Shown here one piece after another: positions 1,134 through 23,529 of a DNA stretch of 28,055 nucleotides. The notes below the pieces were generated by a model. That model was not told the DNA's origin, made no database searches, and saw only the letters and a list, made by a program, of their open reading frames with translations. Positions within the stretch are counted from its first letter, which is position 1; every line of letters starts with the position of its first letter. Made by a program: the position numbers and the translations under genes. This DNA comes from a bacterium (GTDB taxonomy: Bacteria > Hinthialibacterota > Hinthialibacteria > Hinthialibacterales > Hinthialibacteraceae), in contig JBHGBC010000075.1 of assembly GCA_041946805.1 (NCBI GenBank), positions 1-28,055 on the forward strand, in the 5' to 3' direction.

Positions 1134-1168
1134 CTCCCTTTCCCTCTGGGAGAGGGCCGGGGTGAGGG
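1134..1168 (-). repeat. REP-like palindromic repeat, copy 2 (inverted relative to copy 1)
   Basis: Reverse complement reads CCCTCACCCCGGCCCTCTCCCAGAGGGAAAGGGAG. Confidence 0.75.
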
Positions 1169-1272
1169 AAGACGTATCAATGCCCCATCGGTGTCGCGGT
1201 TTTTCTGAATTCTCAGGACTCACATCCGCTACTTGCCACCAATTGCCTTATTCCGGATCCATATTTCAATTC

Positions 1273-1322
1273 AAATAAAAAAGGGAAACTGAACTGGTCT
1301 TGAACCAATCCAGCTTCCCTTT
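1273..1322 (-). terminator. Intrinsic terminator of the giant gene
   Basis: Minus strand AAAGGGAAGCTGGATTGGT-TCAAG-ACCAGTTCAGTTTCCCTTT followed by TTTATTT. The stem is fully paired only with G-U pairs on the minus strand, and lies ~60 nt downstream of the stop at 1380. Confidence 0.8.
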
Positions 1323-1379
1323 ATGGGATTAAATCCATCTACTCCAATTCAAGCCGGACAGCCTGAAGCGCCGAAGCGC

Positions 1380-4300
1380 TTACGGGGCGATAATCGACTG
1401 ATAAATACTGTCCGTGCCCCACACCAGGTATTGCACGCCGTCCGTGATCCTCGCCCAGACTTCCAGGTAGAAGTTATACGGGCAGGTCTGCCAGGGCATG
1501 ATGTCGCCATTGCCATCCAGCGGCAACAAGGGGGACAGGGTGTAGCCCGACACGCCGTTCCAGACCGGCGGCGCGGCGTCGTGCGACCCGGTGTACTGGT
1601 CGTAGGTGAACTGCCCGCCGTAGCGGTTGTTGCCCCAGTAGCAATTCAGCCGGTAATTCATCAGGAATCCGTCGGGATGCCACGCCGTGATCGTGAAGAT
1701 CAGGCTGGAGTTTCCGTTGTGCGGGAAGGTGACCTTCTCGCATTCCATGATTTCCGTCCCGTCCGCGTAGGTGATCTCATCGATCCGCGCCTGCACGGGA
1801 TGGTTGTTGATCTCGATGGTGAAGCGGTCCGAGGTGTTGCGCGGCAACGCCACTTCTTCCACGGAATCGGGGCCCGTCTGGCGGTAGGCCTTGAAGCTGA
1901 CGCTGTATTTCCCGTTGAGGCCGGCCGTGTTCCAGATCATCCGCAGGTCGGTGAAGGTCCAATAGCCCGCCTTGTTCAGAAGGTACAGGTTGGGTACGCC
2001 GCCGATGGTGTGCGGCCCCATTTTCACGGTGGTGGTGGTGACCGTGTTGTCCGGATTGATCGTGAACTGGATCTTGGACAGCGGATCGCTCAACGCGGCG
2101 GTGGCCGACGTGCCGTAGGGCGCGGCCACGATCTGGTAATAGTCCACCGGATCGGACGGGCCGAACAATCCGCGCAGTTCCAGGGCGCCGCCGAACGCGG
2201 TATCCCAATATTTCGGAACGTGCAGGCTGCTTACCACGCTGTCGGAGACCCGGAGCAAGCCATGGGCGGGATGCGCCTTGTCCTTCACGATCTCGGTGAT
2301 GGGGATCTTGCCGATGCTCGTGAAAACAAAGCCGCTGGCCGGGCCCAGGGCGCCGCCGAGGTTGTAGCGGATTCCGCCGAAGGCCCCCATGTCGTTGCGC
2401 GTCCCGTCATTGTCGTTATACTGCGGCGCGGGATTGCCGGCATCGATGCAGGGAGAGGTCGATGCCAGGAAGAAATATCCGTTCGCGGCGTCCACGAAGA
2501 CCGGATCGGCGGAGAGGGCGCCCGCGCCGCCGGAGACCTCGGTCCAAGTGGTTCCGTCACTGACCGCGTAGTAGGAGCCGCCGCCCGTGACGTTGGCGGG
2601 ATCGTAGACATCGTTATACGAAATGACAGGCGCCGCCGGGATCCGCCACAGGATACCGCCGACCGGCGAGGTGTTCCCCCGCACGATGATGTTGTTCATG
2701 ATGACGGGCGCGACCGCGCCGATGTTGAGGGCGGCGAACGAAATGCCCGCGTAATACCCGTAATCGCAGATCGTGTTGTTGACGATCGTGGGCTGGCAGT
2801 TGCCTTGGGCGCGGATGCCCATGCCGCCCACATGGAAAATCACGTTGTTCTGGATCGTGGGAGACGAATCATCCATCCGGATGCCGTCCGCCGCGAGAGA
2901 GGCAAGGTCCATTTCCGTGATCAGGTTTTCCCGGATCGTGAGGGAGGCGGTATGGCAATAGATGCCCAGATCCGCGTTGCGGACGGTAAAGCCGCTGAAG
3001 ATTGTATCGGATCCGATGCCGATGCAATCCACCGCGCGGGTAGCCCCGCCCGCGTCGATGAAGGTCGTGTCGGCGCCGGAGCCCAGGACGCTGAGGCCGT
3101 TCTTCATGACCACGGCTTCCTGGTACTGGCCCGGCATGACCCGGACGATCTGCCGGCGGATGCCCGCGTTGACGCCCTCGGCGATGGTGTTGTAGGGATG
3201 GGTTTGCGTGCCGTCCTCCACCCCTGAGTTATTGTCGTCATCCACCCAGAGGGTCCGGCGGACGAGCAGGTAATCCGTCTCATACCCGCCGCCGCCCGAG
3301 AAGACCACGCTGTCGTGGATCTCCAAGATCGCCGCGCTGCTCATCTGGAGCGTCAGTGTCCGGGTTTGGAATCCGAAATCATACACGGCGGTGAAGGGAT
3401 TGCCGGTGTAGGGAACCGTGATCTCGCCCCAATCGCAATCCGTGGGCACGCAATTCCCGTACGCGTGGAGCGTCATCTGGTTCCCGTCGCGCGTGATGAG
3501 GATTTTCGTCATGCCGCCCGTGTCCGGATCGGCGTTGACCCATTCATCCACGAAACTGCCGGCGGTGATCAGCGGGATAAACGTCACGTCGATGATCGGT
3601 CCCGAGATGATGGGCGTGGGTTTGATCACGGGCGGGATGGAAAAGGTCGGAATGATGACCGGCGTGATCCGGATCGAGGGAAGAATGGGGATGATGGGCA
3701 GCGCCGCCGTCTCGAGTTGCGCGGGCCGCGCGGAAGCGGTTTGGACGCGCGGGGAATCGATCGGTTCGGGAAGGGCCGCGGCCGCCGTGGAGGAAGCCCG
3801 GGTCGTCCCGTCCGCGCCACCCGTTTTCACGAGCGTGACCGCGCCGCTGGTGACCGAATGATACACGCTGTACGTGCCGTACTGCAGATAGACGAATCCA
3901 TCCGTTGTGCGCGTGCCCGCTTCCAGGTAGAACCGGTAGGCGCAATCTTCCCAGGCCATGGGATTGCCGCTCAGGTCCGTGGGCGAGAGCGGAGGCAGCA
4001 GCTGGTCGTTCACGCCCGGCCATAGCGGCGGGGCCGCGTCATGGGATCCCACATACTGGTCATATACGAACCGGCCGCCGAAACGGCTGTGCCCCCAGTA
4101 ACTATCCAACACATAATACCGCAGGAAACCGTTGGCGTGATTGGCGGTGATGTCGAACTGCAACTGCGAGGAGCCGGCGTGCGGGAAGGTGATGTCCTCG
4201 CATTCCACGATGGGGTCGTTGTTCGCGTACAAGACTTGGTTGATCGCGACCTCCAGGGGCGAGTTGTCGAGCCACAAGGTGACATGATCATAGGTGTTGG

Positions 4301-7300
4301 GCAGCAGGTTCACGAGCGCCACCGCGTCCGGCCCCGTCTGCTTGTAGGCTTTGTAATCGAGGCGGTATCGCCCGTTGCGCCCGCCCGTGTTCCAGATCAT
4401 GCGCAGATCCTGCTGGCTCCAGTACCCGGTCTTGTTCAGCTGGTACAAGTTCTGAACTCCGCCGAGGGTTTGAGGTCCCAGTTGGATGCTGGTGGACGTG
4501 GTCGAGCCGTCGGGATGGATGACCGTCAGCGTCTTGACCAGCGGATCACTCAGCGCGAACACCTCCGATCCGTCTTCCGACGTGGCGATGATCTGGTAGT
4601 AATCCACGTCATCGGCGGCCCCGAACAGCCCCCGGAGCCACAGATACCCGCCGAAGGGGGAATCCTGGTATTGCGGAATCGAAAAATCGCTGGCCGCCGC
4701 GGCCGAGACATCCGCCAAGCCGAAGGAAGGATTGCCGGAATCCTGGACGATTTCCGTGATGGGAATCCGGCCCACGGAGGTGAAGAGGAAACCGGTGCCG
4801 GTGTGGGCAATGCCGCCGAGGTCGATCCGGAGGCCGCCGTACGCGCCCATGTCGTTGCGCGATCCGTCGTTGTCGTTATAGGACGGATCGGGATCGCCCG
4901 CGTCGATGCACGGCGAGATGGGAAGCAGGTAGAAATACCCGTTCAGCGCGTCCACGAAGCGGGGATCCACCGCCAGGGCCCCCGCGCCGCCGGACATTTC
5001 GGTCCACGTGGCGCCGTCAGACCGCGCGTAGGCGGAAGTATCGCCCGTGACGTTGGCGGGGTCGAAGACATCGTTGTAGGAGATCACCGGCGTGGCCGGG
5101 GTCTTCCACAAAACGCCCCCGACCGGCAGGGTGTTACCGCGTTGGATGATGTTGTTCTTGATCACCGGCGAAACCGCGCCGATGTCGAGGGAGGCGAACG
5201 AGATCCCCGCGTAGTAACGGTAATCGTAAATCGTGTTGTTGATGATGGACGGCGCGCTGCCGCCCTCGCCGCGGATCCCCATCCCGCCGACCCGGGCGAT
5301 CACGTTGTTCCGGATCTCGGGCGAGGAATTCTGCAGCCGGATGCCGTCGCCCGACGTCGAACCCAGGTCGATGTTGGTGATGACGTTCTCCCGGATTTTG
5401 GGCGAGGCGTTCAGGCAATGGATTCCGGCCGCGAAACCGTTGATGGTGAATCCCGAGACCTCGGTATCCGCTCCGGCTCCGGAACACGAAATCCCGTCGC
5501 CCGCGCCGCTCCCCTTGATGAGCGTGGAATCGGCTCCCGCGCCGATCAGCTTGACGCCGGGCTTCAGGGTCACGGATTCCGGATACGTGCCGGCCCGCAC
5601 GCGGATCGTGTGGTTCACCGCGGCGTCCATGGCTTCCGCGATGGTGTTGAAGGGATAGGCTTCCGATCCGTTCTCGAATCCGCTCTGGTTGTCATCGTCC
5701 ACCCAGAGGGGATCGGCGAGCGCCACGGTGGGATCTTCGATCACGCGGAAGCGGTAGCCGCTCAGGTAAGGACTGCGTTCATCCCCGGTAATCCCGTTGC
5801 AAACATTGTTGACATCACACGTCAAGGTCAGCGGCCAGCCCAGTCCCGTGGCCAGCCCCGTTTCCCCGCCGGAGACGCACTTGTCGAAGGCTTCCGGTCC
5901 CTCGATGCGCACCAGGCCCGGCCCCACTTGGATCGCTGTCCAGGCCCCGTTCCCGAATTGGTTGATGCCGCTCACCAATTGGTCCACCAGGCATTGCACC
6001 GCGGCTTCGCACGACTGGCTGACGCATTGCTCGCAGGAGATTTCCACCCGCACGCTGGCCAGGGCGTCGCACTGGAAGGGATCGCAGCTGGTTCCCGTCC
6101 GGGGAATCAGGGAGAAGATGAATGCGCCGCCATGCTGTTGCGCTTCCCGGCAGGAGATTTCGATGATGTTGTACCACGCGGGTTCCTGCGGCGTCGGCGT
6201 CTTGGTGGGCGTCGGCGGCAGTTGGGGAGTGAACGTGGCCGTCGGCGGCGTTTGGGGCGTAAAGGTGGCCGTGGGGAGGACTTCGATAAACTCACAAATC
6301 CAGCAGATTTTGAGGATGCAGATTTCCGCGCCCTCGACTTCGATCGTGCGGATGCCGCTCGAGCTGCCGAGCGTCAGCGTTTGCACCACCGGATCCGGCG
6401 AGGCGGTGGCGGTGTCCACCAGGTTGTTCGCGTCGTCATACGCGTACAGGGTGCAGGAAGCGGCATGCAAGAGCACCACTTCCACGAATTGCGGGGCCTT
6501 CCCCCGGCATACGTTGCCCGAGAAGGTGATCCGGGCTTTCTGCGCCGCGGTGGCCTCCGACCAGGGGATGGAGATATCCAACTGGTGGTCGCCGGAGCAA
6601 TCGATCACGCTCAAGGGCACGGGGGCCCCGGTTGCCAAGAGGGCCTGCGTGATTTCCACCCAGCCCAAATTGACGCGCGGAATGTCAACCGCCGGGGTGG
6701 TATACACATCCGACGCTTCCACGCATTCCTTCTCGCCCAGACCCCGCGTGGGGGTGGGAGTGGGCCGTTGGACCAGCGTATTCGTGGGAGTGGGAGTCGG
6801 CCGCTCGACCTTCGTGCTGGTGGGAGTCGGGATCCCGATGATCCGGCACACCCAGCAGACGCGCAGGATGCAGATTTCCGAACCGTCGATCTCGATTTCG
6901 CGGATTCCGGAGGGGCTCGTCAGCGTCAAGGTCTGAACCGCCGGACCCGCGGCGGCGGCCGCCGAATCCACGATCGCGCCGCCTTCATCGAAGGCCGTCA
7001 ATATGCAGTAATTCCCATGCATCAAAACCACTTCGACCTGCTGCGGGGCGAGTCCGCCGCAGAGATTGGGCGACAGGCGGATCCGGGCCTTCTGGACCGC
7101 GGTGGCTTCCGACCAGGGAACCGAGACGTCCAGGCGGCCGTCACCGGAGCAATCGGTCACGCTGATGGGCACGGGGCCGCCCGCCGCGGTATAGGCTTGT
7201 GTGATCGCCACCGCGCCCAGGTTGATCATGGGCACGTCCAACTGCGGGGCCGTGTACACATCCCCGGCTTCCACGCATTCCTTGCCGGGGGGCAGCGTGG

Positions 7301-10300
7301 GCGTGGGCCGCGTCACGGGGCCGCACGTCCAGCAAACCCGCAGGACGCAGATATCCCCGCCCTCGATTTCGATCCAGCGGATGCCGGTGGGGCTTTCCAG
7401 GGTCAACGTCTGCACGCCGGGAGCGGCGCCCACGGGAAGCACCACGGCGGCCGTGTCGACGATGGCGCCGCCGTCATCCCGGGCGTACAACGTGCCGGGC
7501 GACAGGGTCATCAATGTCACTTCCACGGTCTGCGGGGCTTGCCCTTGGCAAACGTTGGCCGAGAACACCATCCGGGCTTTCCGTAAGGCGCCGGCGTCCG
7601 GCCCGGGGATAAAGACATCCAGCGCGCTGTCCCGCGAACATTCCTCCACGCTCAGCAGGGCCTGAGTCCCATCGGGTTGGACCGCCGCGAAAAATTCCAC
7701 CCAGCCCAGGTTCACCGAGGAAAGGTTGGCCGCCGGCGTGGTGTAGACATCCCCCGCCTCCACGCATTGTTTTTCGCCCAAGCCCGTTGTGGGAGTCGGA
7801 GTGATCCGCGGCGTGGGCGATGGCGTGGGCAGGAAGCTGGGAATGAATTCTTGCCAGCGGTACCGCTCGGCGTGGATGTCCACCTTGAGGACCTTGCCGG
7901 ACGGGACATCCGGCAGAATCAACACGCCGTCCTCGCTGGTGATGCCGTTGACCGAGGAGTCATCGGACAACGCCAGGTTCAACAAGGCCCCCGCAACCGG
8001 CTGGCCGTTTTCGCCCACCAACCGCAGCAAGGTCCCCAATTCATACGCCTCGAGGATCACCTTGATCGGCCCGGTGAACACGATCCCGTAGCGCCGGATG
8101 GTCAGTTCCGGATCGCCGAGCAGGATGTAGCAGAACGTGTTGTTATCCCAACTGCCCGAGTCGCCGGTGAGGTTCCAGGAGATTTGTTCCGCTTCGGCCA
8201 GGGCCGGCGACAGGCGGGTGAAGTTGGAATCGTAGATGGCGCGGAAAACGCCCTTGGCGCGGTTGTGGTTTTCCGTGGTGTACGAATTGACGGAAGCGCC
8301 CCAATGCGCCACCGCCCCCGCGGCGCGGTTCATCCAGGCCTCGCCGATGCAATCGCTGGTCTTGATCCGCCCGTTCTGGCAGGCGATCGAGTAGATGATC
8401 GGATACACCGAGTTGTCCAGCAGGGGCAACTCGTTGGTCATGTCGAAGTCGTTGCCGTATGATGAGGAACCGTCCCATCCCGCGACCCACGAGGAAGTGT
8501 CCCCATGCCCGCGGTACAGCACCTGGCCGCGGCCTTCGTTGATGGCGTCGATCACGTCCTGGTTGATGGCCCGGGGCGTGGCCGAGGTCTTCGCGCCCGC
8601 GTGGAACACTTCGAAGGTGGGCGGGTTGGTGTACGCGCCGTAACTCGCGATTTCGTTGACCGCCGCCGCGTACTTGGAGGGATGCGACGAACAGACACCG
8701 AGGCAGCCGTCGTCATTCTGGCTGTTCGCGCACAGGGTGGCGGTGCTGGGCCAGGTCCCGAACGCGAAGCCTTGCTCGTAGCTGAGGATCTTGTTGAGTT
8801 GGAACTGCAGCTCGTCCGCGGAATTGCAGGAGAGCCGCCCCACGTACAGGCTCGGGAACCGGTCCGACCCGATGACTTCGTAGACGTGGTCCGAATCCGC
8901 GTCACTGAAGTCGGGGCTGGCGTCGATCCGGCTGGTCCGGCCGGCGGGGACTTCATCCACGTCGCCGATAATCAGCACATAAACACCCTTGCAGTAGTGT
9001 TCCTTGAAATAGTCCTCGATATAGGCGTCGATCGCGTTCCGGTCGGCGGCCACGTCCGCGCCGGCGCCGACCGTCACCACGTCCACGAACAGGCCTTTGG
9101 ACCGTTTGAAATTGATCAGATCCGTCAACTGGCTCTCATATTTCGAGGGAGTCAGGATCAGATAATGCGCTGAACGGGAGGCTTCGATCCGGATGCCCTT
9201 GGCCGTCAGCGATTCCCGCAGCGCCTCGCCGTTGATGAACGGCAGTTTGAAGATCCATGAATCCCAGGCGATCGGGCAGGGGAAATCCAGAATCAGATCG
9301 CCCAGCACGCCGCCCGGATGCAGCACTTCGATGTCGATCGTGGAGGCGATCTGCACCACCTTGGGCGACACGGCCTTCACCAGGGGCGTCCTCAGCTCCA
9401 ATCCGGAGAACGCGCCGGCATGGGTGATGTCGGACAGGTTCCGCTCCGGCCCGGTGTATTCACCCTTGAAGTCCGAGTAAAACGTCTCGTCCACCAGTTC
9501 CGGAGGCGTATAGCCGTACCGGCTCTCCTCCTGGGTTTGATCCAATCCCTCGAAGCCCGCGGGAACCAAGGGGAAGGGCAGGTTGACGGCGTTGACTCCG
9601 GCGGTCTGCGCGGTGAAGACAATCGAGTCCCGGTTGGTTTTCGAATTGACCGCCAGGATGCCGGCGAGGACCGGAATGCGCGGCCGCGCGCCACTGGGAT
9701 CGATTCCCAGCCGGAGCATCTCCTCCCCGGTCCGCGGGAAGGAAGTCTGCTTGGCGAGTTCTTCCGGGAATACCGGCTGGAAGGCCCGGACGGACAACGC
9801 CCGGCGGTATTTCTCCTTCGACAACGGCGGATGGCTGCTTTCCTTGGGGAACTCGTACCATTCCGCGCCGGGCTCGAAACCCTGGCCGTCCAGCTCCCCG
9901 ATATCCGGGAAGTCGATGCGGGAGAATTCCCGCCCCGCGTAATTGACTTTGGATACCCAGTATCCGGGAATCTGCAGGCGCAGGATCGTCCGGTCCTCGT
10001 TGGTCTCCAGCACGCTGACGTGGATCGGCGAGCCGGGTTCCAGTTTGGGATCGAAGGGCACCCAGGTCGGGGGCGCCACCGGTTGGGTGGGCGAGCAGTT
10101 CCAACAAATCCGCAGGATACAGATTTCCGCGCCGGTGATGGTGATCCGCTTGATCCCGCTGGCGCTGGTGAGGATGAGCGTTTGCTGCGCCGGTCCCGGA
10201 GCGGTCACGGCGCTGTCCACCAGCGCGTTGGAATTGTCATACGCCAGGAAGGTGGCGGAAGCGAAGCACACCAGGTCGATCCGCACTTCCACGGGACCCT

Positions 10301-13300
10301 TGCCTTCGCACAAATTCTCGGCGAAGAGGATTTGGGCTTTTTGAGCCATTGATTCATCCGACAGGGGAAGGAAGATCCCCAGACGGCCGGTGTCCGCGCA
10401 ATCCCGGATCTGGATGGGAATGGGTTTGCCCGTGACGTCCACGGGCGCCTGGACCCGCACGAGCCCCATCGCCGCGGTTTGCGTTTCCGATTCGCCGGTG
10501 AAATACGCGCTGGGCTCCACGCAGCCTTCCGCCGCCGGAGGCAGCGTGGCGGTGGGCGTCACCGTGGGTGTGGGGCGTACGGTCGGTTTACCGGTCGGCG
10601 TGGGCGTGGGCAGGAAGGGTCCATACGTTTGCCGGATGACGCCCAGAAACACCGATCCGGTGGGCGGATTGGCGTCGCCGATGAACGCGGGGAAGCCGTC
10701 GTTGGGTCCCACCGCGGTTGCCACATCCAGCACCGCCGCGCCGTCGAACGTCACCTTGACGATGCGGTAGCGGCTTTCGGGAGCGGATTTTTGGGCGATG
10801 AATTGCCGGCCTTGCATTTCGATATACGCGCCGGTTCCGAACACCAGTTCCTGTCCGGTTTCCGGATTGCCGTCGAATTCGCCCGCGGCCACGCTCACCA
10901 TGCCGGAGGGATTGACCGCGTCGCGGAAGACGTTGAAGACGGCCCGGCCCGTGGCGCGGCGGAAGCCAATGACCTGCCCGTTCTCCACCACCGGGATGAT
11001 GACGGAGACCAGGTTCAGGGGCACCGTGTCGCGGTCATCGCCGAAGTTTTTCAGGTTGCCCATGCTGGCGGCGATGATCTCGTTCCAGCCATCGCCATTC
11101 AAATCGGCCACCGCCAGGCTGACCCCGCCATGGCCTTGGAATTTTGCCGGGAATCCGGTGAACGGAGTCCGCTTGGCGATGCCGCCTTTCTCGTTGATGT
11201 CCAGCGCGTGGAAAATGGTCTTCGAGGTGGGGCCGTTCATCTGGCCGACGAGCAGTTCATCCCGCCCGTCGTTGTCCAGGTCGCCCGCCGCCAGGGTCAT
11301 GCCGATATTGACCGTGAGCGTAACGCCGCTGACGGTCTGATGGATCAAGTTGTCGGGCAGGCCGTTGAATTGCCCCACGACTGACCAGGCGTTGGGCGCC
11401 GGCTGGCCGGTGTATTGATACAACCGGATGATCCCGTTGCCGCCGCGTCCCTGGGCCGCCGCGATCTGCGGCAGTCCCGATCCGGTGAAGTTGCCCACCG
11501 CCGTCCGGACATCCCCGCCGTTGTATTGCACCGGCGTGTCCGAGCCGGAAGGGAACGCCACGAACGAATGCCCCAGCACTTCCCGCGTCTCCGCGTTCCG
11601 CGCGACCAGAATGTTGGGGAAGAGGGCGTCTCCCAGAATGGGACCCAGCGTGATCACCACTTCCGGCGAGCCGTCGTTGTCCAAATCGCCGCTGGACAGG
11701 AACGTGGGACGCCCGTCGCCGCCGCCGATCTTCTCCAGGAATGATCCGGCCGCTCCGCTGAAGGAACGCAGAACCGAAGTCAGCGGGCCGGCGTCGGGAT
11801 CGAAGTTCTTGATGTTGATGATGGTGCGGCCGCCCCAGCCCTGCGCCAGGATCAGTTTGTCGAAGAACCGGATGAATGGCTTCCGCGTGGCGGTCGGCGT
11901 GGGGGTGGGTCTCGTGATGCCAATGGTGGGAGTGGCCGTTGCCGCGGGTCCGCCCGGATAGTTGCCGGGATCGTTGGGATTGGTATGCTGTGTCAACTCC
12001 ACGTTGTCGTCGAATCCGTCTCCGTCTGTGTCTTTCTTCCAGGGATCCGTGCCCGCTGTCTGCTCCTGCAGGTTGGTCAGGGTATCCCCGTCCGGATCTT
12101 CCTTGTCATCGGAGATTCCGTTGCGGTCCGAATCCTTCTCATAGGGATTGGTGTTCGACTTGTACAATTCGAACAGGTCCGTCAGCCCGTCCCCGTCGTT
12201 GTCGGGATCCGCGCTGTTCTTGAGGCCGTCCCCGTCCGGATCTTCATCGGGGACCAGCCGGACGGAGTCGTTGTACAGGACCGATTCGTTCCCCGCCGCG
12301 TCCCGGAATTTTGCGTACACGTAGGCGAAATTGCCCTTGGAATTGGGCTGGATCACCCAGTTTTGCACCACGGGCGCGATGGCCTTCCAGGCGGCGCCGG
12401 ATTGCGGCGCGTCGTTGCTGATCCGCATCTCCTTCGCGTCGTCGCTGGTGTCGAGGTCCAACTTGACCTGCAGGGAATCGGCCAGCCCCGCGCCGTTGTT
12501 GATCTTGATCCATCCCTTGGGCGGCACGGGATCATCCTTGGCCGTTCCCGCGAACACCCGCGAGGGGGCGCTGAGCGCGCCGGATTCGCCCTCGGCCACG
12601 ATTTGGTAATAATACGTCTTCCCGTTGGTCAGCCCTTCATCGGGCCAGACGCCGTTCTTGACGTCTCCCACGTCCAGCACCTTGAATTCCACCAGGTTGT
12701 TCGGGGAGTCGCCGCGGAAGATGTGAATCCGCCGGTACGCCTTGGACAAGGGGAAATAGACCAGGTTCGTCTTGGGCTGGGGAATCTGGCTGGGAATGTC
12801 GATCACCACGTCCACCACGCCGCAGTCGATGGGCCGCGGCAGCTGGTCGTCCCGGGGATCGTAGTTGTTCCGGTTGTTTCCCAGTTCCGACCGGTCGTTC
12901 TCGCCGCCGTGATCGCTGTCCGGATCGTTGGGGATCGTGCCGTTCACGTATTCATCCAGGTTGGGCAGCTGGTCCTGGTCCAAATCGCCCTTGGCGTCAT
13001 CCACGAGCGGATTGAGGCCGTACAGGTTTTCCCAGCGGCTGGGCATGCCGTCCTTGTCGGGATCGGGATCCAGATCTTTCCGGTCGAAGAAGTCGAAGAA
13101 CTCGTAGACTTGGAATCCGCCCTTGGTGAGGCGGATGAACCGCTTGCCTTTCGAGTCCTCGCCCGTGGCGTTCACCAGGACCAGGTAACTGCCGTTTTGC
13201 CCGTCGGCCGTCAGGTTGTCCGCCACGCCGTACTGGCTGGCCATCGTGGTCCGGCGGAACACGCCGTAAAAGATGCCGTCTCCCGCCCGGCTGTCCCCGT

Positions 13301-16037
13301 TTAGGCCGTCATCGAAGAGGGGAACCTGTTCCACGCGCCCATCCGGCGAGTAGACGTGGGCCAGGACTTCCGCCCGGACGATCGGCCCGCCGATATCGGC
13401 GAGGGTCACTTCGATGGGCATGGGCAGCCCGCGCAGAAAGAGGGCATTGATGATCCGCTGCTTATCTTCCAGTTTGGGGATTTCCTGATGGGCCGGGAAG
13501 CGCAGCCGGATCCGCAGGCCGTTGCCCGCCTGGCCCGACAACATGGCGATGAAATCGGTCTCTTCTTGAGCGGTCAAGCGCAAGCTCCAGGGGCCCGGAT
13601 CCAATTTGTCCATGTGGAAGACGATGTGATTTCCGGACGTGAAAATCCGCACGCCGGGCTGGCCGTCGTTGACCGTGGAGCCATCGGGACGGCGCAGCTC
13701 CGCCTTCACATCCGCTTTGGCATTCGACCAGAAGACGGCCAGCGCGGCCTGGGTGATGCCCTCCTCGTCCACCGTGAAGGGAATGTTTTGCGTCACGCCC
13801 GCCGGCAGGACGCCGGCATTCTCCCAGATCCGGCTTTGGCCGTTGACGAATTCATGGGACAACTTGTAGACGTCCGCCAGCCGGACAGGATAATCCAAGT
13901 TGGTGTAATCCACGGCTTGCGCGGCCAGCGTGGGACCGCCGGGGGCCCTGCGCTTGGCGGAGGCGCCGAGGTTCAAATCGACATAGTAATAGAAGCCATC
14001 GGTTTCCAGGGCGATGTCCTGCATCAGCGCCTGATCGGACGTGGGACCGAGGGCGATGGAAATCACATGCGTGCCGGCGTTTTTGATCCGGCTCTTGACG
14101 CTGGGGCTGCTTTCCCAATACCGCGCCTCGTTCTCCATGCCGTCGCTCAACAGGACGATGAAGGGAATGGCGTCGGGAATGGGAGACGCGTCCAGTTCAT
14201 TCTGCGCATTGTTCAAGCCGTCGCCGATCGAGGTCAGCACCGAAGGCCCGGCGATGGAAATGGAGGAGACGGCCGTGCGGATCGCGTTGCGGTTGGGTCC
14301 CACCTCCCGCAGCGTGAGTCGGGTGGTGGCGTCCTCGTTGGGCTCGGTATTGTCTCCACCGAACGAAACCACGGCCATTTGATCGTTGTCCGGCGCGCTG
14401 TCGGCGTACATCAACGCCGCCGCCTTGGCCGCGTCGATCTTGGGATAATCCTCGGGATCCAGCATGCTGCCCGAGCCGTCCACGACGATGACTTCATCGC
14501 GTTGGATCTTGGCGTAGATCACCGCGCTTTCCTGGGTGGCGCTGAGGTCGCCCAGCTTGACCTGCAGGTTGTAGAAGGGCCCTCCCGAGGTCTGTTTCGG
14601 GGCTTGGACAAGCAGCCAGAACTCCCCTTGCACATACGATCCGCTGACCACCGTGGCGTCCTGCACTCCCACCTTGGCGGTGAAGTCGTCGGCTTGCAAT
14701 CCCCAAACCGTGCCGCCGCCCAGGTCCGCCGGTCCGGTCACCTGCATCCGGGCGATGAATTTATCCGGATTGTCCGGCTCGCCCACGTAGGCCAGGCGGG
14801 TGAAGGTCGGCTCGACGATGCTCATCGTCACTTCGCCCGCCGCGAAGGTGTAGGAGTAGTCCGCGCCGCTGTCGAGACCCGCCACGACGGCCGCGATTTC
14901 GGTCAGTGGGGTCTTGCGGGAATTGAAGAACGACCGGGCGTATTCGGTTCCCACGCCGCGGTGCAGGCTGATCACCTTGCCCGAGCGGATGGCCATGACC
15001 GAATAGGCCGCGCGGTTGCCCGTGGATTTGAATCCGACCACCTGGCCCGCGGTGTTCGCCGCCGGCTCGCCGATGTAATATTTCGCCGCGTAGTCGTTCA
15101 CGTGGGCCGCCGTGGGGCCGATGGTGGGGGGAAAGGCCTTCCGCAAGTGCGTCTGGACGTCCGGATACGCCGCCGCGTCATCGTCGATGTAGCGGTACCG
15201 GACGGCGTTGGCGATGGAACTGAGGTCCAGGTCTTTCGTGTAACTGGCCACGGCGAAATCCCGGAACAGGTCATCCAGTGAACGCGAGGATGTGAAATGG
15301 CTGATCATCCGCTTGATCGCGCCGAGGCTGTCCGGGCTTTCCCCGTCCGTCTCTTCCCAGAACCGCCGGATCACGTCCACGCCGTATTCCGGCTCCGTGT
15401 GCACGGTCCCCAATTGCTCGCACAGGTATTGCCAGAACAGGCAGGCGGAATACGACTGGTCCACCAGCCGCACGTCGGTTTGGGCCATGTAGTTGCTGAT
15501 CTCCCCCCAGAAGGTGAGCATCCCGCCGTCGGCGTCCAGGTCGTTCCACAGCTTGTCCTGCATCAACCGCGCGGTGCCTTCGACCGTCCACCGCCCCCAG
15601 CTGGGCCAATCGTTGAAATTGATATAGTGGTATTGGGTGTGATGAAAATGCTCGTGATCGGTCACGGCCCGCAGGCTGGGCTCATTGCGCCCCCGCAGGC
15701 TGGGTGAATCCAGGGTGATGCTTCCTTCCGGCGCGGCCCCGATGTTCTGCGAGTCGTACATGTGGACCTCGCCCGGCGAGTACGAAAAATGGGGCGTGCC
15801 GAATCCCAGCCCGGTGATCCGGGTCACGAAGGGATCCATGGTATCAGCCACGTCGTTGGCCTCGGCGTCGGCCATGACATCCACGGTGTTGTTCGGGTCA
15901 TTCGTGTAATAAATCTCATAGCCGTTGCCGGGCGTGGTGATCATGTCATCCAAGTCACCGGGTTCGTGACCGGCGAAGACCACCAGCGACAACAACATGA
16001 AAAAGGCCAGCACATAAGAGGATCGCGGCATGTTCAT
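1380..16037 (-). CDS. Giant (4885 aa) secreted multidomain protein: Zn-metallopeptidase + vWA + FG-GAP + peptidase C25 (gingipain-like) + repeated Cys-rich and beta-helix modules
   Basis: Uninterrupted ORF with a hydrophobic N-terminal signal (YVLAFFMLLSLVVFAG) and purine-rich upstream sequence (AGAAGGTACGGGAAG-ATG). Motifs: HEHFH (aa128-132) with WTVEGTA (E153); DGSGS (aa520-524); LFDDGLNGDSRAGDGIF; DxDxDG repeats; GDLDNDG-type repeats; YVLIIGD, VGRL, RGHG, IACQNG, LLGDP; paired LWVDDDN...DMGAxGG beta-helix blocks; PT linkers. Confidence 0.95.
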   Translation of the reverse strand: MNMPRSSYVLAFFMLLSLVVFAGHEPGDLDDMITTPGNGYEIYYTNDPNNTVDVMADAEANDVADTMDPFVTRITGLGFGTPHFSYSPGEVHMYDSQNIGAAPEGSITLDSPSLRGRNEPSLRAVTDHEHFHHTQYHYINFNDWPSWGRWTVEGTARLMQDKLWNDLDADGGMLTFWGEISNYMAQTDVRLVDQSYSACLFWQYLCEQLGTVHTEPEYGVDVIRRFWEETDGESPDSLGAIKRMISHFTSSRSLDDLFRDFAVASYTKDLDLSSIANAVRYRYIDDDAAAYPDVQTHLRKAFPPTIGPTAAHVNDYAAKYYIGEPAANTAGQVVGFKSTGNRAAYSVMAIRSGKVISLHRGVGTEYARSFFNSRKTPLTEIAAVVAGLDSGADYSYTFAAGEVTMSIVEPTFTRLAYVGEPDNPDKFIARMQVTGPADLGGGTVWGLQADDFTAKVGVQDATVVSGSYVQGEFWLLVQAPKQTSGGPFYNLQVKLGDLSATQESAVIYAKIQRDEVIVVDGSGSMLDPEDYPKIDAAKAAALMYADSAPDNDQMAVVSFGGDNTEPNEDATTRLTLREVGPNRNAIRTAVSSISIAGPSVLTSIGDGLNNAQNELDASPIPDAIPFIVLLSDGMENEARYWESSPSVKSRIKNAGTHVISIALGPTSDQALMQDIALETDGFYYYVDLNLGASAKRRAPGGPTLAAQAVDYTNLDYPVRLADVYKLSHEFVNGQSRIWENAGVLPAGVTQNIPFTVDEEGITQAALAVFWSNAKADVKAELRRPDGSTVNDGQPGVRIFTSGNHIVFHMDKLDPGPWSLRLTAQEETDFIAMLSGQAGNGLRIRLRFPAHQEIPKLEDKQRIINALFLRGLPMPIEVTLADIGGPIVRAEVLAHVYSPDGRVEQVPLFDDGLNGDSRAGDGIFYGVFRRTTMASQYGVADNLTADGQNGSYLVLVNATGEDSKGKRFIRLTKGGFQVYEFFDFFDRKDLDPDPDKDGMPSRWENLYGLNPLVDDAKGDLDQDQLPNLDEYVNGTIPNDPDSDHGGENDRSELGNNRNNYDPRDDQLPRPIDCGVVDVVIDIPSQIPQPKTNLVYFPLSKAYRRIHIFRGDSPNNLVEFKVLDVGDVKNGVWPDEGLTNGKTYYYQIVAEGESGALSAPSRVFAGTAKDDPVPPKGWIKINNGAGLADSLQVKLDLDTSDDAKEMRISNDAPQSGAAWKAIAPVVQNWVIQPNSKGNFAYVYAKFRDAAGNESVLYNDSVRLVPDEDPDGDGLKNSADPDNDGDGLTDLFELYKSNTNPYEKDSDRNGISDDKEDPDGDTLTNLQEQTAGTDPWKKDTDGDGFDDNVELTQHTNPNDPGNYPGGPAATATPTIGITRPTPTPTATRKPFIRFFDKLILAQGWGGRTIINIKNFDPDAGPLTSVLRSFSGAAGSFLEKIGGGDGRPTFLSSGDLDNDGSPEVVITLGPILGDALFPNILVARNAETREVLGHSFVAFPSGSDTPVQYNGGDVRTAVGNFTGSGLPQIAAAQGRGGNGIIRLYQYTGQPAPNAWSVVGQFNGLPDNLIHQTVSGVTLTVNIGMTLAAGDLDNDGRDELLVGQMNGPTSKTIFHALDINEKGGIAKRTPFTGFPAKFQGHGGVSLAVADLNGDGWNEIIAASMGNLKNFGDDRDTVPLNLVSVIIPVVENGQVIGFRRATGRAVFNVFRDAVNPSGMVSVAAGEFDGNPETGQELVFGTGAYIEMQGRQFIAQKSAPESRYRIVKVTFDGAAVLDVATAVGPNDGFPAFIGDANPPTGSVFLGVIRQTYGPFLPTPTPTGKPTVRPTPTVTPTATLPPAAEGCVEPSAYFTGESETQTAAMGLVRVQAPVDVTGKPIPIQIRDCADTGRLGIFLPLSDESMAQKAQILFAENLCEGKGPVEVRIDLVCFASATFLAYDNSNALVDSAVTAPGPAQQTLILTSASGIKRITITGAEICILRICWNCSPTQPVAPPTWVPFDPKLEPGSPIHVSVLETNEDRTILRLQIPGYWVSKVNYAGREFSRIDFPDIGELDGQGFEPGAEWYEFPKESSHPPLSKEKYRRALSVRAFQPVFPEELAKQTSFPRTGEEMLRLGIDPSGARPRIPVLAGILAVNSKTNRDSIVFTAQTAGVNAVNLPFPLVPAGFEGLDQTQEESRYGYTPPELVDETFYSDFKGEYTGPERNLSDITHAGAFSGLELRTPLVKAVSPKVVQIASTIDIEVLHPGGVLGDLILDFPCPIAWDSWIFKLPFINGEALRESLTAKGIRIEASRSAHYLILTPSKYESQLTDLINFKRSKGLFVDVVTVGAGADVAADRNAIDAYIEDYFKEHYCKGVYVLIIGDVDEVPAGRTSRIDASPDFSDADSDHVYEVIGSDRFPSLYVGRLSCNSADELQFQLNKILSYEQGFAFGTWPSTATLCANSQNDDGCLGVCSSHPSKYAAAVNEIASYGAYTNPPTFEVFHAGAKTSATPRAINQDVIDAINEGRGQVLYRGHGDTSSWVAGWDGSSSYGNDFDMTNELPLLDNSVYPIIYSIACQNGRIKTSDCIGEAWMNRAAGAVAHWGASVNSYTTENHNRAKGVFRAIYDSNFTRLSPALAEAEQISWNLTGDSGSWDNNTFCYILLGDPELTIRRYGIVFTGPIKVILEAYELGTLLRLVGENGQPVAGALLNLALSDDSSVNGITSEDGVLILPDVPSGKVLKVDIHAERYRWQEFIPSFLPTPSPTPRITPTPTTGLGEKQCVEAGDVYTTPAANLSSVNLGWVEFFAAVQPDGTQALLSVEECSRDSALDVFIPGPDAGALRKARMVFSANVCQGQAPQTVEVTLMTLSPGTLYARDDGGAIVDTAAVVLPVGAAPGVQTLTLESPTGIRWIEIEGGDICVLRVCWTCGPVTRPTPTLPPGKECVEAGDVYTAPQLDVPMINLGAVAITQAYTAAGGPVPISVTDCSGDGRLDVSVPWSEATAVQKARIRLSPNLCGGLAPQQVEVVLMHGNYCILTAFDEGGAIVDSAAAAAGPAVQTLTLTSPSGIREIEIDGSEICILRVCWVCRIIGIPTPTSTKVERPTPTPTNTLVQRPTPTPTRGLGEKECVEASDVYTTPAVDIPRVNLGWVEITQALLATGAPVPLSVIDCSGDHQLDISIPWSEATAAQKARITFSGNVCRGKAPQFVEVVLLHAASCTLYAYDDANNLVDTATASPDPVVQTLTLGSSSGIRTIEVEGAEICILKICWICEFIEVLPTATFTPQTPPTATFTPQLPPTPTKTPTPQEPAWYNIIEISCREAQQHGGAFIFSLIPRTGTSCDPFQCDALASVRVEISCEQCVSQSCEAAVQCLVDQLVSGINQFGNGAWTAIQVGPGLVRIEGPEAFDKCVSGGETGLATGLGWPLTLTCDVNNVCNGITGDERSPYLSGYRFRVIEDPTVALADPLWVDDDNQSGFENGSEAYPFNTIAEAMDAAVNHTIRVRAGTYPESVTLKPGVKLIGAGADSTLIKGSGAGDGISCSGAGADTEVSGFTINGFAAGIHCLNASPKIRENVITNIDLGSTSGDGIRLQNSSPEIRNNVIARVGGMGIRGEGGSAPSIINNTIYDYRYYAGISFASLDIGAVSPVIKNNIIQRGNTLPVGGVLWKTPATPVISYNDVFDPANVTGDTSAYARSDGATWTEMSGGAGALAVDPRFVDALNGYFYLLPISPCIDAGDPDPSYNDNDGSRNDMGAYGGLRIDLGGIAHTGTGFLFTSVGRIPITEIVQDSGNPSFGLADVSAAAASDFSIPQYQDSPFGGYLWLRGLFGAADDVDYYQIIATSEDGSEVFALSDPLVKTLTVIHPDGSTTSTSIQLGPQTLGGVQNLYQLNKTGYWSQQDLRMIWNTGGRNGRYRLDYKAYKQTGPDAVALVNLLPNTYDHVTLWLDNSPLEVAINQVLYANNDPIVECEDITFPHAGSSQLQFDITANHANGFLRYYVLDSYWGHSRFGGRFVYDQYVGSHDAAPPLWPGVNDQLLPPLSPTDLSGNPMAWEDCAYRFYLEAGTRTTDGFVYLQYGTYSVYHSVTSGAVTLVKTGGADGTTRASSTAAAALPEPIDSPRVQTASARPAQLETAALPIIPILPSIRITPVIIPTFSIPPVIKPTPIISGPIIDVTFIPLITAGSFVDEWVNADPDTGGMTKILITRDGNQMTLHAYGNCVPTDCDWGEITVPYTGNPFTAVYDFGFQTRTLTLQMSSAAILEIHDSVVFSGGGGYETDYLLVRRTLWVDDDNNSGVEDGTQTHPYNTIAEGVNAGIRRQIVRVMPGQYQEAVVMKNGLSVLGSGADTTFIDAGGATRAVDCIGIGSDTIFSGFTVRNADLGIYCHTASLTIRENLITEMDLASLAADGIRMDDSSPTIQNNVIFHVGGMGIRAQGNCQPTIVNNTICDYGYYAGISFAALNIGAVAPVIMNNIIVRGNTSPVGGILWRIPAAPVISYNDVYDPANVTGGGSYYAVSDGTTWTEVSGGAGALSADPVFVDAANGYFFLASTSPCIDAGNPAPQYNDNDGTRNDMGAFGGIRYNLGGALGPASGFVFTSIGKIPITEIVKDKAHPAHGLLRVSDSVVSSLHVPKYWDTAFGGALELRGLFGPSDPVDYYQIVAAPYGTSATAALSDPLSKIQFTINPDNTVTTTTVKMGPHTIGGVPNLYLLNKAGYWTFTDLRMIWNTAGLNGKYSVSFKAYRQTGPDSVEEVALPRNTSDRFTIEINNHPVQARIDEITYADGTEIMECEKVTFPHNGNSSLIFTITAWHPDGFLMNYRLNCYWGNNRYGGQFTYDQYTGSHDAAPPVWNGVSGYTLSPLLPLDGNGDIMPWQTCPYNFYLEVWARITDGVQYLVWGTDSIYQSIIAP
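8100..10060 (-). other. Domain: peptidase C25 (gingipain-like) catalytic domain (~8100-9170) preceded by a probable propeptide (~9300-10060)
   Basis: HYLILTP, YVLIIGDVDEVP, SDHVY, LYVGRLS, KILSYE, LYRGHG (His2511, nt 8505-8507), YSIACQNG (Cys2553, nt 8379-8381), IGEAWM, GAVAHWGAS, YILLGDPEL, in the order expected for family C25. Upstream GARPRIP resembles the G-x-P-x-L/I-P propeptide motif. Confidence 0.88.
10640..11865 (-). other. Domain: FG-GAP-like repeat region (probable beta-propeller)
   Basis: Five repeats: SSGDLDNDGSPEVVI, AVGNFTGSGLPQIAA, AAGDLDNDGRDELLV, AVADLNGDGWNEIIA, AAGEFDGNPETGQELVF; PT linkers on both sides. Confidence 0.8.
13970..14500 (-). other. Domain: von Willebrand factor A with MIDAS
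   Basis: VIVVDGSGSM (DxSxS), LTSIGDGL (Thr), VLLSDG (Asp632), then VISIALG...LMQDIALETDGFYYYV. Confidence 0.9.
14840..15970 (-). other. Domain: N-terminal HExxH...E zinc-metallopeptidase-like region (boundaries approximate)
   Basis: HEHFH at 15642-15656, with a downstream Glu in WTVEGTA at 15579-15581; gluzincin-like spacing. Confidence 0.75.
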
Positions 16038-16159
16038 CTTCCCGTACCTTCTTTCTGGATGATTGACAGGGAATTGGTCGATAGGACGCGGCTGAGATGT
16101 GGCTTTTTGAATTCCCCCCTGGACGCCAAAAACATTCGCTACACTTTTGGGCCGATCAG

Positions 16160-16189
16160 CTTATACAACAAAACGGCTTGCAGTGTCAA
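16160..16189 (-). promoter_or_regulatory. Candidate sigma70 promoter of the giant gene
   Basis: Minus strand TTGACA (16189-16184), 18 nt, TATAAG (16165-16160), preceded by A-tracts (16190-16210, UP-element-like). Confidence 0.6.
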
Positions 16190-16683
16190 TTACTTTTTTC
16201 ATTTTTTTTTCAGTAACTTTGACAATGAATCAATTTGGTAAAGTCTTTGAATATACGGATTTGGATTCACTGGAATTCGGGAAGGCAAGACATGGGCGGA
16301 TCCCGGCGGAGATGGCGATTGAAAACAGGATACGAATGTAAATAAATTTACATTTTTGGCGACTTTATGCCTTGCCTTGGAGCAGATCTCGATTTATATT
16401 TTCCAATGACGTTATTTCCGCAAGATTCAAATACCGCATGGATTTTCGTTCTCGAACTACATCGATTTACTCGATTGAATTGGTAATTTATTATAGGCTT
16501 CCCGATAGGTTTCCCGAGTTTTTCTGGTCTGGAATCATTGGATTTTCGCAAATTTTTATGATATATCATATTTCCAGTATTGTATATGTAAATTTGTATA
16601 ATTACATTTTTATCTCATGGTAAATCATGAAAAAGCCCACCGGTAAATCCAGGTGGGCTGGGGAGTCAATTCACGTAGGGATT

Positions 16684-17577
16684 TCAGGCCAGTCCCCACG
16701 ACTTCATGTTTCGCAGGCTGATGGCGATGCTCTCCATCGGGTCCCGTTGGCAGGTGTCCTGCTCCACGATGTAATACTGCACCTTCGCGGCTTTGGATGC
16801 TTCCAGAATCGCCGGCCAGTTCAGGTTGCCCTCGCCCACCTCCGCAAACACCCGCTTGGGATGGAACTCCTTCTCTACGGGCAGCATGGCCATGTCTTTC
16901 ATGTGCACCATCCGCACGCGCCCCGCCGCCTTGCGGATCCAATCCGCCGGATCGGCCCCGCCGTCCTGCACCCAGTACGTGTCGATTTCAAATCCAAAAT
17001 ACTTGGGATCGCTGGCGGTGCGGAGGATCTCCTGTCCCGTCTGGGCGCCGTATTTCACAAACTCGAAACTGTGATTGTGATATGCCAGGAACATGCCCGC
17101 GTCCGCCAGTTTCTGCCCGATGCCGCTGGCCACTTGGGCGAATTGATGGAAGCCTTTCGTGCTCCGGAATTCCGTGGGCAGGGCGCTGATGACCAGGTGG
17201 TTGCACCCCAGCTCCTTGTACTGGTCGATTTCTTTCTGGATTTCCTTGGTCAGGCCGTCCCACGAGGCATGCGCGGAGATCACCGTCAACGCGTTGTCCT
17301 TCACGATCCGGGCCAGCCGCGCGTTGTCGATGGGGCCCAGCCCGGCCAGCTCGATGTTGTCATAGCCGATTTGTTTGACTTTCGCGAGCGAGCGGGCGAT
17401 GTCGTCCGGGGTTTTGAGAAAATCCCGGATGGTGTAGAGAATCATGCCGATGCGGCTGCCACCGGCCGCTCCCGCGCTTTCGCCGGCCCGGGCGGTGAAG
17501 GGTAGGCCGGTTTTCAAAGCCAGCGCGGCGGCCGCGCCGGTTCCCCAAAATTGACGCCGATTCATGAGCGTAGACAT
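16684..17577 (-). CDS. Tat-exported sugar phosphate isomerase/epimerase (xylose-isomerase-like TIM barrel)
   Basis: NRRQF twin-arginine leader; YHNH, FEIDTYW, HMKD, EVGEG, IVEQD motifs. ATG at 17577 has GAGGA 8 nt upstream, preferred over the TTG at 17598. Confidence 0.88.
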   Translation of the reverse strand: MSTLMNRRQFWGTGAAAALALKTGLPFTARAGESAGAAGGSRIGMILYTIRDFLKTPDDIARSLAKVKQIGYDNIELAGLGPIDNARLARIVKDNALTVISAHASWDGLTKEIQKEIDQYKELGCNHLVISALPTEFRSTKGFHQFAQVASGIGQKLADAGMFLAYHNHSFEFVKYGAQTGQEILRTASDPKYFGFEIDTYWVQDGGADPADWIRKAAGRVRMVHMKDMAMLPVEKEFHPKRVFAEVGEGNLNWPAILEASKAAKVQYYIVEQDTCQRDPMESIAISLRNMKSWGLA

Positions 17578-22450: not shown

Positions 22451-23494
22451 ATGAATCCACTTTTATCCCCCAACCGCCGTGAGTTTCTTTCCGCCGCCTC
22501 GCTGGCCGTCTTGGGCGCGGCCGCCGCCTCTCCGGGAAGGGCCGCGGAATCATCCCAGCCGGTGATTCCTCCGGGTTTCAAGCCGGGCGAGATGAAGATC
22601 GGCTGTGTCAGTTGGAATTTCCGGGGTATCGGCGACGCGTTTCCGTTTGATGAGCCTATAGAGATCGTCGGCGGAATGGGCTTCGACGCCATCGAACTGA
22701 TTGTCTCCCAGCCCGGCGACCTCGACGCGTACTGGAAGAAGGAATCCGTCATTTCCGGCCTCCAGAAAAAACTGAAATCGTACAACTTGGCCGTTTCCCA
22801 ATTCGTGTTGTTCCAGAACGCGGTGGCGGACCTCTCCAGCCTGGACAGCGACCGCCGCAACCGCAGCCTGGACGTTTTCGAACAAAGCTGCCAGATCGCC
22901 GCCCGGCTTAACGCGCCCTTCATCAACATGGTCGCCCCGTGGGCGCGGGAACTTACGGGCCCCAGCGATTATCTCCCCCGGTATTTCGCGGTCTCCAAGA
23001 ACGACAAAAATCCCAAATTTCACATCGATATCGCCCCGGGATTTGATTACGAGGCCGTGTGGGATACATTTGTCCATACCATGAAGGGCTGCGCCGAACG
23101 GGCGGCCCACCATGGCATCCGCTTCTCGCTGGAAAACCACACCCACACCCTGGTACACGATTCCACCGCGTTCCTGCGCCTCTGGGACCAGGTCCGGCAT
23201 CCCGCCCTGGGGATGAATTTGGACATCGGCTGGATTCAACTGCAACGCGAGTATCCGCCCTTCGCCATACACAAGGTCAAGAATCATTTGATGAATTTGC
23301 ACGTGCGCGACATCGACAGCCCCGGCCTGGTGTTTGTGGGCATCGGCGAAGGGGTGATGGATTTCAAGGCGGTCATCGAAACCCTGAAAACCATCGGCTA
23401 CACGGGCTATCTCACCTTCGAGCAGGATGGCGTGCCCGACATGCGTAAAACCCTCGCGAATGGGAAGAAGATGATCGAGGAATTAATTGGGTGA
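22451..23494 (+). CDS. Tat-exported sugar phosphate isomerase/epimerase (xylose-isomerase-like TIM barrel)
   Basis: RBS AAGGAG; NRREFL twin-arginine leader; GFDAIEL, LENH, NLDIG, HVRD, IGEGVMDF, GYLTFEQ. Confidence 0.9.
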   Translation: MNPLLSPNRREFLSAASLAVLGAAAASPGRAAESSQPVIPPGFKPGEMKIGCVSWNFRGIGDAFPFDEPIEIVGGMGFDAIELIVSQPGDLDAYWKKESVISGLQKKLKSYNLAVSQFVLFQNAVADLSSLDSDRRNRSLDVFEQSCQIAARLNAPFINMVAPWARELTGPSDYLPRYFAVSKNDKNPKFHIDIAPGFDYEAVWDTFVHTMKGCAERAAHHGIRFSLENHTHTLVHDSTAFLRLWDQVRHPALGMNLDIGWIQLQREYPPFAIHKVKNHLMNLHVRDIDSPGLVFVGIGEGVMDFKAVIETLKTIGYTGYLTFEQDGVPDMRKTLANGKKMIEELIG

Positions 23495-23529
23495 TTACTG
23501 CGACCCAATATTCTAAGGAACAGGGAATC

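Follow-up and report, generated by a model that had tools for sequence, protein, structure and literature searches.

Described C25 zymogens and the P0001 gene

The closest described systems are the gingipains RgpA, RgpB, and Kgp (family C25) of Porphyromonas gingivalis (PDB 1CVR, 4IEF), zymogens in which a propeptide with an inhibitory loop is followed by a His/Cys C25 domain and then by binding modules. C25 is given as Arg- or Lys-specific (PMC4357240), and the inhibitory loop corresponds to the specificity of the enzyme (PMC4357240, PMC4138498). In RgpB, Arg126 of this loop occupies S1 and is the first site to be cleaved, and the second cut, at Arg229, depends on it; both cuts are required for full activity (PMC4357240). 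C25 enzymes are common among the secreted peptidases of anoxic MAGs (PMC8359207). A clan CD peptidase also lies within a giant precursor in the case of the MARTX cysteine protease domain (C80), which has Leu specificity and is activated by a ligand (PMC4357240). Giant multidomain proteins of Omnitrophota have been proposed to be cut by internal peptidases and suggested to leave by type II secretion (West-Roberts et al. 2023, bioRxiv 2023.11.21.568195).

The protein considered here, P0001, appears to share the order propeptide, C25, binding modules with the gingipains. It is encoded in a 28,055-nt window, the whole stretch of DNA analyzed, which is a complete contig (G000:C289) of genome G000 (6.7 Mb; 96.8% complete); the phylum, OLB16/Hinthialibacterota, is described as a biopolymer degrader rich in peptidases (PMC9324843). 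The ORF at 1380..16037 (minus strand, as are all features of the gene given below) encodes 4885 aa, is the longest in the genome, has no internal stop, and starts with a signal peptide judged by eye, in agreement with the single secreted chain reported in the first-pass annotation. A Logan contig of 15,698 nt, assembled from run X1, spans 1143-16840 with 0 differences, 0 gaps, and flat depth; run X1 is probably the same sample as G000, so this contig is a second assembly rather than a second sample. A chimeric assembly was rejected on the basis of this gapless contig, and the fusion described below is also present in the sister genome G001 and in P0003. Runs X2 (sludge) and X4 (digester), the only small-share runs considered, contain fragments of about 85-98% similarity distributed over the full length of the gene, none of them spanning it, and raw-read run X24 gave partial matches only. 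Against G001, dN/dS is 0.09-0.25 in 15 comparable segments; aa ~2197-3489 are outside this comparison because G001 lacks those residues. The ORF is real and under purifying selection.

The sequence also agrees with the reading of the gene as monocistronic, with its own promoter and terminator. A sigma-70-type promoter was found by reading at 16160..16189 (-35 TTGACA at 16189-16184, 18-nt spacer, -10 TATAAG at 16165-16160), while a consensus promoter scan listed none near the gene start; its hexamers and spacing are identical in G001, where the flanking genes differ and map to other G000 contigs. An intrinsic terminator-like hairpin with a T run lies after the gene (1280..1322). A 37-nt REP-like repeat at 1134-1170, also present near 899, has 574 matches in the genome. 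No tRNA was found within the 28,055-nt window, and a phage-type integrase and an HTH gene, in DNA of lower GC where the contig ends (25211-27791), are probably the edge of an integrated element.

The chain begins with a Sec-type signal peptide (aa 1-22; 15972..16037; hydropathy 1.81), a layout alike in P0003 and P0090. A zinc metallopeptidase (15168..15971) is followed by two conserved unnamed domains (aa 291-511; 14505..15167; matched in 91/120 and 114/120 homologues), a vWA domain with a DxSxS motif (aa 512-690; 13968..14504; PF00092 at 516-687, E 3e-12), a beta domain with choice-of-anchor X in a CLCA BSR/ID-like order (aa 735-985; 13083..13835; NF041940 above cut-off), and TSP3-type Ca-binding repeats (PF18884, TSP3_bac) with two beta-rich domains (aa 990-1360; 11958..13070), which are weakly Fn3/Ig-like and to which the family profile gives weak Fn3 PDB matches. 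The FG-GAP domain (aa 1391-1801; 10635..11867; PF01839, PF13517) is mobile, with 36-61% identical copies at other chain positions in three other G000 proteins. The first Cys-containing repeat (aa 1839-1981; 10095..10523) precedes the propeptide and C25 domain, and the other three (2758-2905, 2921-3064, and 3105-3249) stand with Pro/Thr linkers at aa 2758-3249 (6291..7766); copy 4 led to unnamed Atlas clusters only (0.91-0.95). Between C25 and these repeats is a conserved domain (aa 2655-2735; 7833..8075) kept in the subfamily and standing where gingipains have their IgSF domain. A second Cys-rich domain (aa 3285-3440; 5718..6185) had no Pfam family above cut-off and was matched only in P0003, and appears genus-restricted. 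The rest comprises beta-helix module 1 with an Ig-like region (aa 3444-4064; 3846..5708; PF13229), where Atlas led to Ig-like families for the post-helix part (<0.9), a low-complexity linker (4066-4180) and small conserved domain (4180-4262) delimited by comparison with relatives (3252..3842), and beta-helix module 2 up to the stop (aa 4263-4885; 1380..3251). Tile-wise self-comparison shows the four Cys repeats and the two ~620-aa beta-helix modules, 48-67% alike over the tiles. Pfam families above cut-off are Peptidase_C25, VWA, FG-GAP, Beta_helix (twice), and TSP3_bac, and five Pro/Thr-rich stretches occur. Every domain listed at first pass (HExxH...E, C25 pair, vWA, FG-GAP, Cys repeats, two beta-helices, linkers) was thus recovered; the internal propeptide, choice-of-anchor X motif, and TSP3 repeats were additions to that list.

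A probable internal propeptide and the predicted specificity of C25

The C25 domain (aa 2284-2650; 8088..9188) matches PF01364 at 2292-2646 (E 6e-51; 174 bits against a cut-off of 23) and RgpB at E 3e-20, with H2511 and C2553 aligned with the RgpB dyad. The region ahead of it (aa ~1990-2283; 9189..10070) had no direct Pfam (including PF08126) or PDB match and was identified as a probable gingipain-type propeptide by profile-profile alignment. A profile of the P0001 subfamily (A3, 45 rows), compared by hhalign with a profile of six canonical pro+C25 domains (A5), gave a probability of 100 in an alignment that continues through the propeptide with an insert of ~70 aa; the propeptide alone gave 94% over 81 columns, and A5 matches the RgpB prodomain 4IEF_A at E 3e-30. 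Transitively, by way of the six-sequence A5 profile, D2166 (9540..9542) aligns with RgpB Arg126, and the published loop numbering, Lys121-Tyr135 (PMC4138498), agrees with this printed alignment. Asp occupies position 2166 in 60/60 subfamily copies, although the pattern used to collect them did not require it; in 53 of the 60, the Arg229-equivalent is followed by an acidic residue. Asp2166 is the predicted inhibitory-loop P1 residue and first self-cleavage site.

P0001 is a variation on the gingipain zymogen plan, real and intact, with a giant size that results from a genus-level fusion. It differs from the gingipains in that the propeptide lies inside the chain, preceded by 1990 aa that include a second peptidase, in that the loop residue is Asp instead of Arg or Lys and the S1 Asp is not kept, and in that there is no T9SS C-terminal domain. 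Stand-alone and tandem C25 proteins (P0128-P0188, uncharacterized and mostly Verrucomicrobiota) have the propeptide-C25 unit and loop Asp in common with P0001, and their catalytic domains are ~50-67% identical to that of P0001; unlike P0001 they lack the metallopeptidase, occur as one to four copies per locus, and mostly end in a short RFYR-type tail. The giant Omnitrophota proteins are much larger, membrane-spanning, and carry C39/S8 peptidases, and the term "C25" is absent from that text (bioRxiv 2023.11.21.568195). The analogy with the MARTX cysteine protease domain drawn at first pass did not survive, as P0001 has no C80, RTX, or effector match. Neither this architecture, which was not recognized as described at first pass, nor an Asp-specific C25 was found described in the full-text literature searched, a body with few subscription papers.

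In the catalytic domain, RgpB S1 Asp163 aligns with H2452 (F/W/H in the family), so the S1 aspartate is not kept. K2455 is invariant (44/44) and lies on the same helix, three residues from the Asp163 position and not on it; R2509 stands two residues before the catalytic His, and H2591 and R2593 are nearly invariant. These four basic residues are predicted to lie near the S1 pocket. The relation between loop residue and Arg at position 2509 was compared in the top 150 A5 hits among 1.84 billion representatives; 149 were used (P0144 is in the query and was left out), and of their 154 domains six with a missing loop or His region were dropped, leaving 148. Where Arg is at this position (123/148), 90 domains have an acidic loop residue, 5 a basic one, and 28 another residue; in the 25 domains without it, the loop residue is basic in 24. 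With both this Arg and an intact catalytic His (24 of the 123), it is acidic in 22 and basic in none. On a FastTree tree the Arg changes three times, and all three independent pairs are concordant (sign test p 0.25), so that the covariation is clean but thinly replicated.

Judged from these residues, an Asp(/Glu) specificity of the P0001 C25 domain is fairly probable. We give about an even chance to the wider proposal that the specificity of any C25 can be read from its propeptide loop, that many environmental C25 enzymes, including P0001, would cut after Asp/Glu like caspases, and that self-cleavage at Asp2166 would be the switch turning one secreted chain into two active peptidases. If true, the charge-swapped clade would bring to the gingipain fold a caspase-like activity that is both bacterial and secreted, and two residues would give a rule predicting specificity across a large family (33,017 cluster representatives match A5 at E up to 0.001). 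In 99 of the 148 canonical pro+C25 domains (P0239-P0387), the catalytic His is missing, with W/Y/F etc. after YRG, and the loop is still mostly acidic; these make up a large clade in which the gingipain fold is altered or inactive. G000 itself has a third C25 protein, of 1281 aa (G000:C259:5788-9633). Another genome of the class encodes a second dual-peptidase chain (P0144; L033:7027-14673, G020:C14), a 2548-aa ORF with two C25 units, one of the Asp-loop subfamily and one with an Arg loop. Verrucomicrobial loci with three or four tandem propeptide-C25 units, motifs intact in each (L046; P0128, P0129), offer natural tests of internal activation.

Because the propeptide is mid-chain, ordinary zymogen activation would split P0001 near its middle, into halves predicted by sequence at 232-244 kDa and 279-291 kDa. 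The reading we favor, with slightly better than even confidence, is that P0001 is an exported zymogen activated by a cut after Asp2166 that splits it into two protease halves. A stand-alone metallopeptidase-vWA protein would have been fused to a C25/beta-helix protein, giving a monocistronic gene for a ~520 kDa zymogen; after Sec export and then probably type II secretion, the internal propeptide would hold C25 latent with Asp2166 in a basic S1 pocket. The chain would be cut after Asp2166 and a second time close to where the propeptide finishes, at one of the acidic residues D2251, D2259, or E2275. Of the two halves, one (~230-245 kDa) would contain the metallopeptidase and the other (~280 kDa) a peptidase of gingipain fold that prefers Asp. 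They may remain non-covalently bound, and both would digest extracellular protein, positioned by their binding modules.

The first-pass annotation had proposed a self-processing polyprotein. Propeptide homology argues for that idea in the form of a single mid-chain cut, while its fragmentation into many subunits was not borne out. In that version C25 would cut many linkers and so produce a complex of several subunits, in the way that RgpA and Kgp are broken into fragments held together non-covalently (PMC5445135). The long linker at 4066-4180 is acidic in P0001 and in three out of four relatives with which it was compared; a conserved site in the linkers was not observed, however, and we regard the version as quite unlikely. 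The seven Pro/Thr linkers have 0 Asp in 195 residues, a count that is uninformative because Asp makes up 1.1% of such linkers genome-wide, and it was dropped as evidence. The proposed single cut after Asp2166 has the merit of naming one residue and defined products, in a field where cleavage of giant secreted proteins is still an open question (bioRxiv 2023.11.21.568195); an internal propeptide with a predicted charge-swapped specificity is the main interest of P0001.

The metallopeptidase-vWA module and its likeness to CLCA

The N-terminal peptidase is of the HExxH...E type (H128, E129, H132, and E153), MXAN_6640/M30/DUF6055-like, and its four zinc-site residues are invariant in 107/107 aligned sequences; the HExxH and downstream Glu pattern occurs in 110 of 120 homologues of the module. 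NF045524 (MXAN_6640-type HExxH metalloprotease) matches P0001 at E 2e-12 and 47 bits, below its cut-off of 140, and relatives match PF10460 and PF19527.

CLCA1 has the domain order peptidase-vWA-BSR-ID with a cleavage loop at Gly680-Cys727 (bioRxiv 2025.10.18.683246), and exchange of the N-terminal peptidase (for M10 or CHAP) on CLCA scaffolds of bacteria is known (Lenart et al. 2013, PMC3650047). P0001 appears to have this order too, its peptidase being followed by vWA, beta-sheet-rich, and Ca-binding ID-like domains, and the CLCA1 vWA (PDB 6PYO) is the second-best PDB match of the family profile. The differences are that the P0001 peptidase is HExxH...E rather than CLCA_N, that two extra domains lie ahead of vWA, and that the autocleavage extension appears absent from the family. 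By sequence, the scaffold of P0001 appears CLCA-like, but P0001 is not a CLCA member.

This likeness raises the possibility that the metallopeptidase cuts its own chain by means of the vWA-BSR-ID scaffold. Besides the domain order, a TIGR00868 match over vWA-BSR-ID in the relative L018 (positions 308-682) and a variable loop with a conserved Asp in the ID-like domain (D940 in 86/97) are in its favor. On P0001, however, TIGR00868 matches over vWA only, CLCA_N had no Pfam match in P0001 or 14 homologues, and the L018 profile match stops at 682; at the place of the CLCA1 loop the family alignment has, at the level of sequence, a short hairpin only. CLCA-type self-cleavage is largely ruled out by these features, and a cut of this kind is very unlikely; cleavage after Asp2166 stays the favored route.

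Origin of the fusion and export

P0001 joins families that are separate elsewhere: module A (metallopeptidase, vWA, choice-of-anchor X, and TSP3; aa 23-1360), module B (propeptide-C25), and module C (Cys repeats and two beta-helices). Homology to stand-alone genes for the N-terminal module stops at aa 1360. Module A has 120 homologues of <2686 aa among 8000 scored candidates, and the sources named for them include Chloroflexi, Bacteroides, Nocardioides, and Phycisphaerales; the C25, FG-GAP, Cys-repeat, and beta-helix modules are all missing from these 120 proteins, whose ends are assorted short tails. Module B has 61 homologues among 8000 scored candidates, the named ones mostly Verrucomicrobiota, in single or tandem arrangement with a full propeptide ahead of every copy (e.g., P0128, P0129). 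Module A was absent from 31 module-B loci and from 149 further C25 proteins, and C25 from 85 module-A loci; these homologue and locus sets are samples, not a census. Module C occurs with C25 in P0005 and L032 and without it in P0004. Pilin-like genes with an FTLIELL start lie near several stand-alone homologues (L012-L014, L019, L032, L033) and may be common in such genomes.

The co-occurrence of metallopeptidase, vWA, and C25, a check proposed at first pass, was searched among 35 genomes of the class: module A is in 10 and module B in 5, and the two are in one ORF only in G000 and G001, which belong to one genus. G016 has both, A being a complete separate gene. A metagenome scan gave at least about seven long matches to the N-terminal module among the 77 loci listed, the others being mostly vWA only. 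Among the genomes searched the fusion is confined to one genus, in which it probably formed; its range is narrow, and it is less important than the enzyme.

The sister-species cluster has 32 members. Of the 15 listed, 6 finish at the counterpart of N3450, and the contigs that encode these are 12-108 kb long. Sister proteins of 402 and 1005 aa, which stand apart, cover 3470-3871 and 3880-4885, and P0189 and P0193 continue through 3872. The window codons at the two break positions, CAG and TAC, are each one change from a stop, and we infer that the sister-copy ends are true stops. Since several copies stop at residue 3450, the beta-helix third of the chain looks dispensable or in decay; what is kept is the part with the two peptidases. 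In G001, the beta-helix tail shares one reading frame with a Tat-type metallophosphoesterase-like protein unrelated to it (L157; G001:C5), a joint that may be a rearrangement or misassembly. Some sister proteins carry the NCBI label Ca. Omnitrophica.

Truncated sister copies and the separate occurrence of the modules are what would be expected if recent module shuffling merely tethers peptidases and binding domains, the chain staying whole or being nicked only by other proteases, with C25 activated without release or latent; the low-nM Ki with which gingipain prodomains bind (PMC4138498) is in keeping with this as well. Against it, propeptide, loop Asp, and dyad are kept in P0001, all six long sister copies checked (6/6) keep both active sites and the loop Asp, and RgpB needs its cuts for full activity. 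We consider a whole chain unlikely and retain activation by the cut after Asp2166.

No secretion genes were seen among the window ORFs, nor any sorting tail or membrane helix in P0001, as previously noted; the highest 19-aa hydropathy beyond the signal peptide (1.82) is in a Pro/Ile-rich stretch that is not a membrane helix. Type II secretion genes are present elsewhere in G000 (GspE above cut-off, eight secretin matches). A C-terminal tail, V-x-[DE]-W-x-L-[YF], is found in 108 of 11,131 G000 ORFs, against 2-5 in shifted controls, and 89 of the 108 have signal-peptide-like starts; NCBIfam gave no match on five tail-tagged proteins tested. Stand-alone relatives of both halves end in this tail or a variant, but P0001 does not. 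Its exit route is uncertain because it lacks the tag; P0001 may be released unanchored or exit by another route.

Identity as PorU or T9SS cargo is not supported. TIGR04183 matched neither P0001 nor the genome, and control genomes likewise had no match; PorP and Por_Secre_tail had no match in the genome, with controls equally silent and therefore weak, and SprA gave a 53-position fragment only. P0001 has no CTD, and NF033707 (PorU sortase) scores 39 bits on it against a cut-off of 420. A PorU-like C25 protein of ~1810 aa (G000:C251:31078-36558; L038) scores 212 bits with the same model, below cut-off, and occurs in 33 of the 35 class genomes; together with the tail it is a candidate for an undescribed sorting system without T9SS. 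Within the window, a secreted beta-helix protein (23491-24903) ends in a variant of the tail, ..VKDEWP. The tail is also carried by an OmcA/MtrC-family decaheme cytochrome (L042:6214-8262), so the tagged proteins include surface redox proteins.
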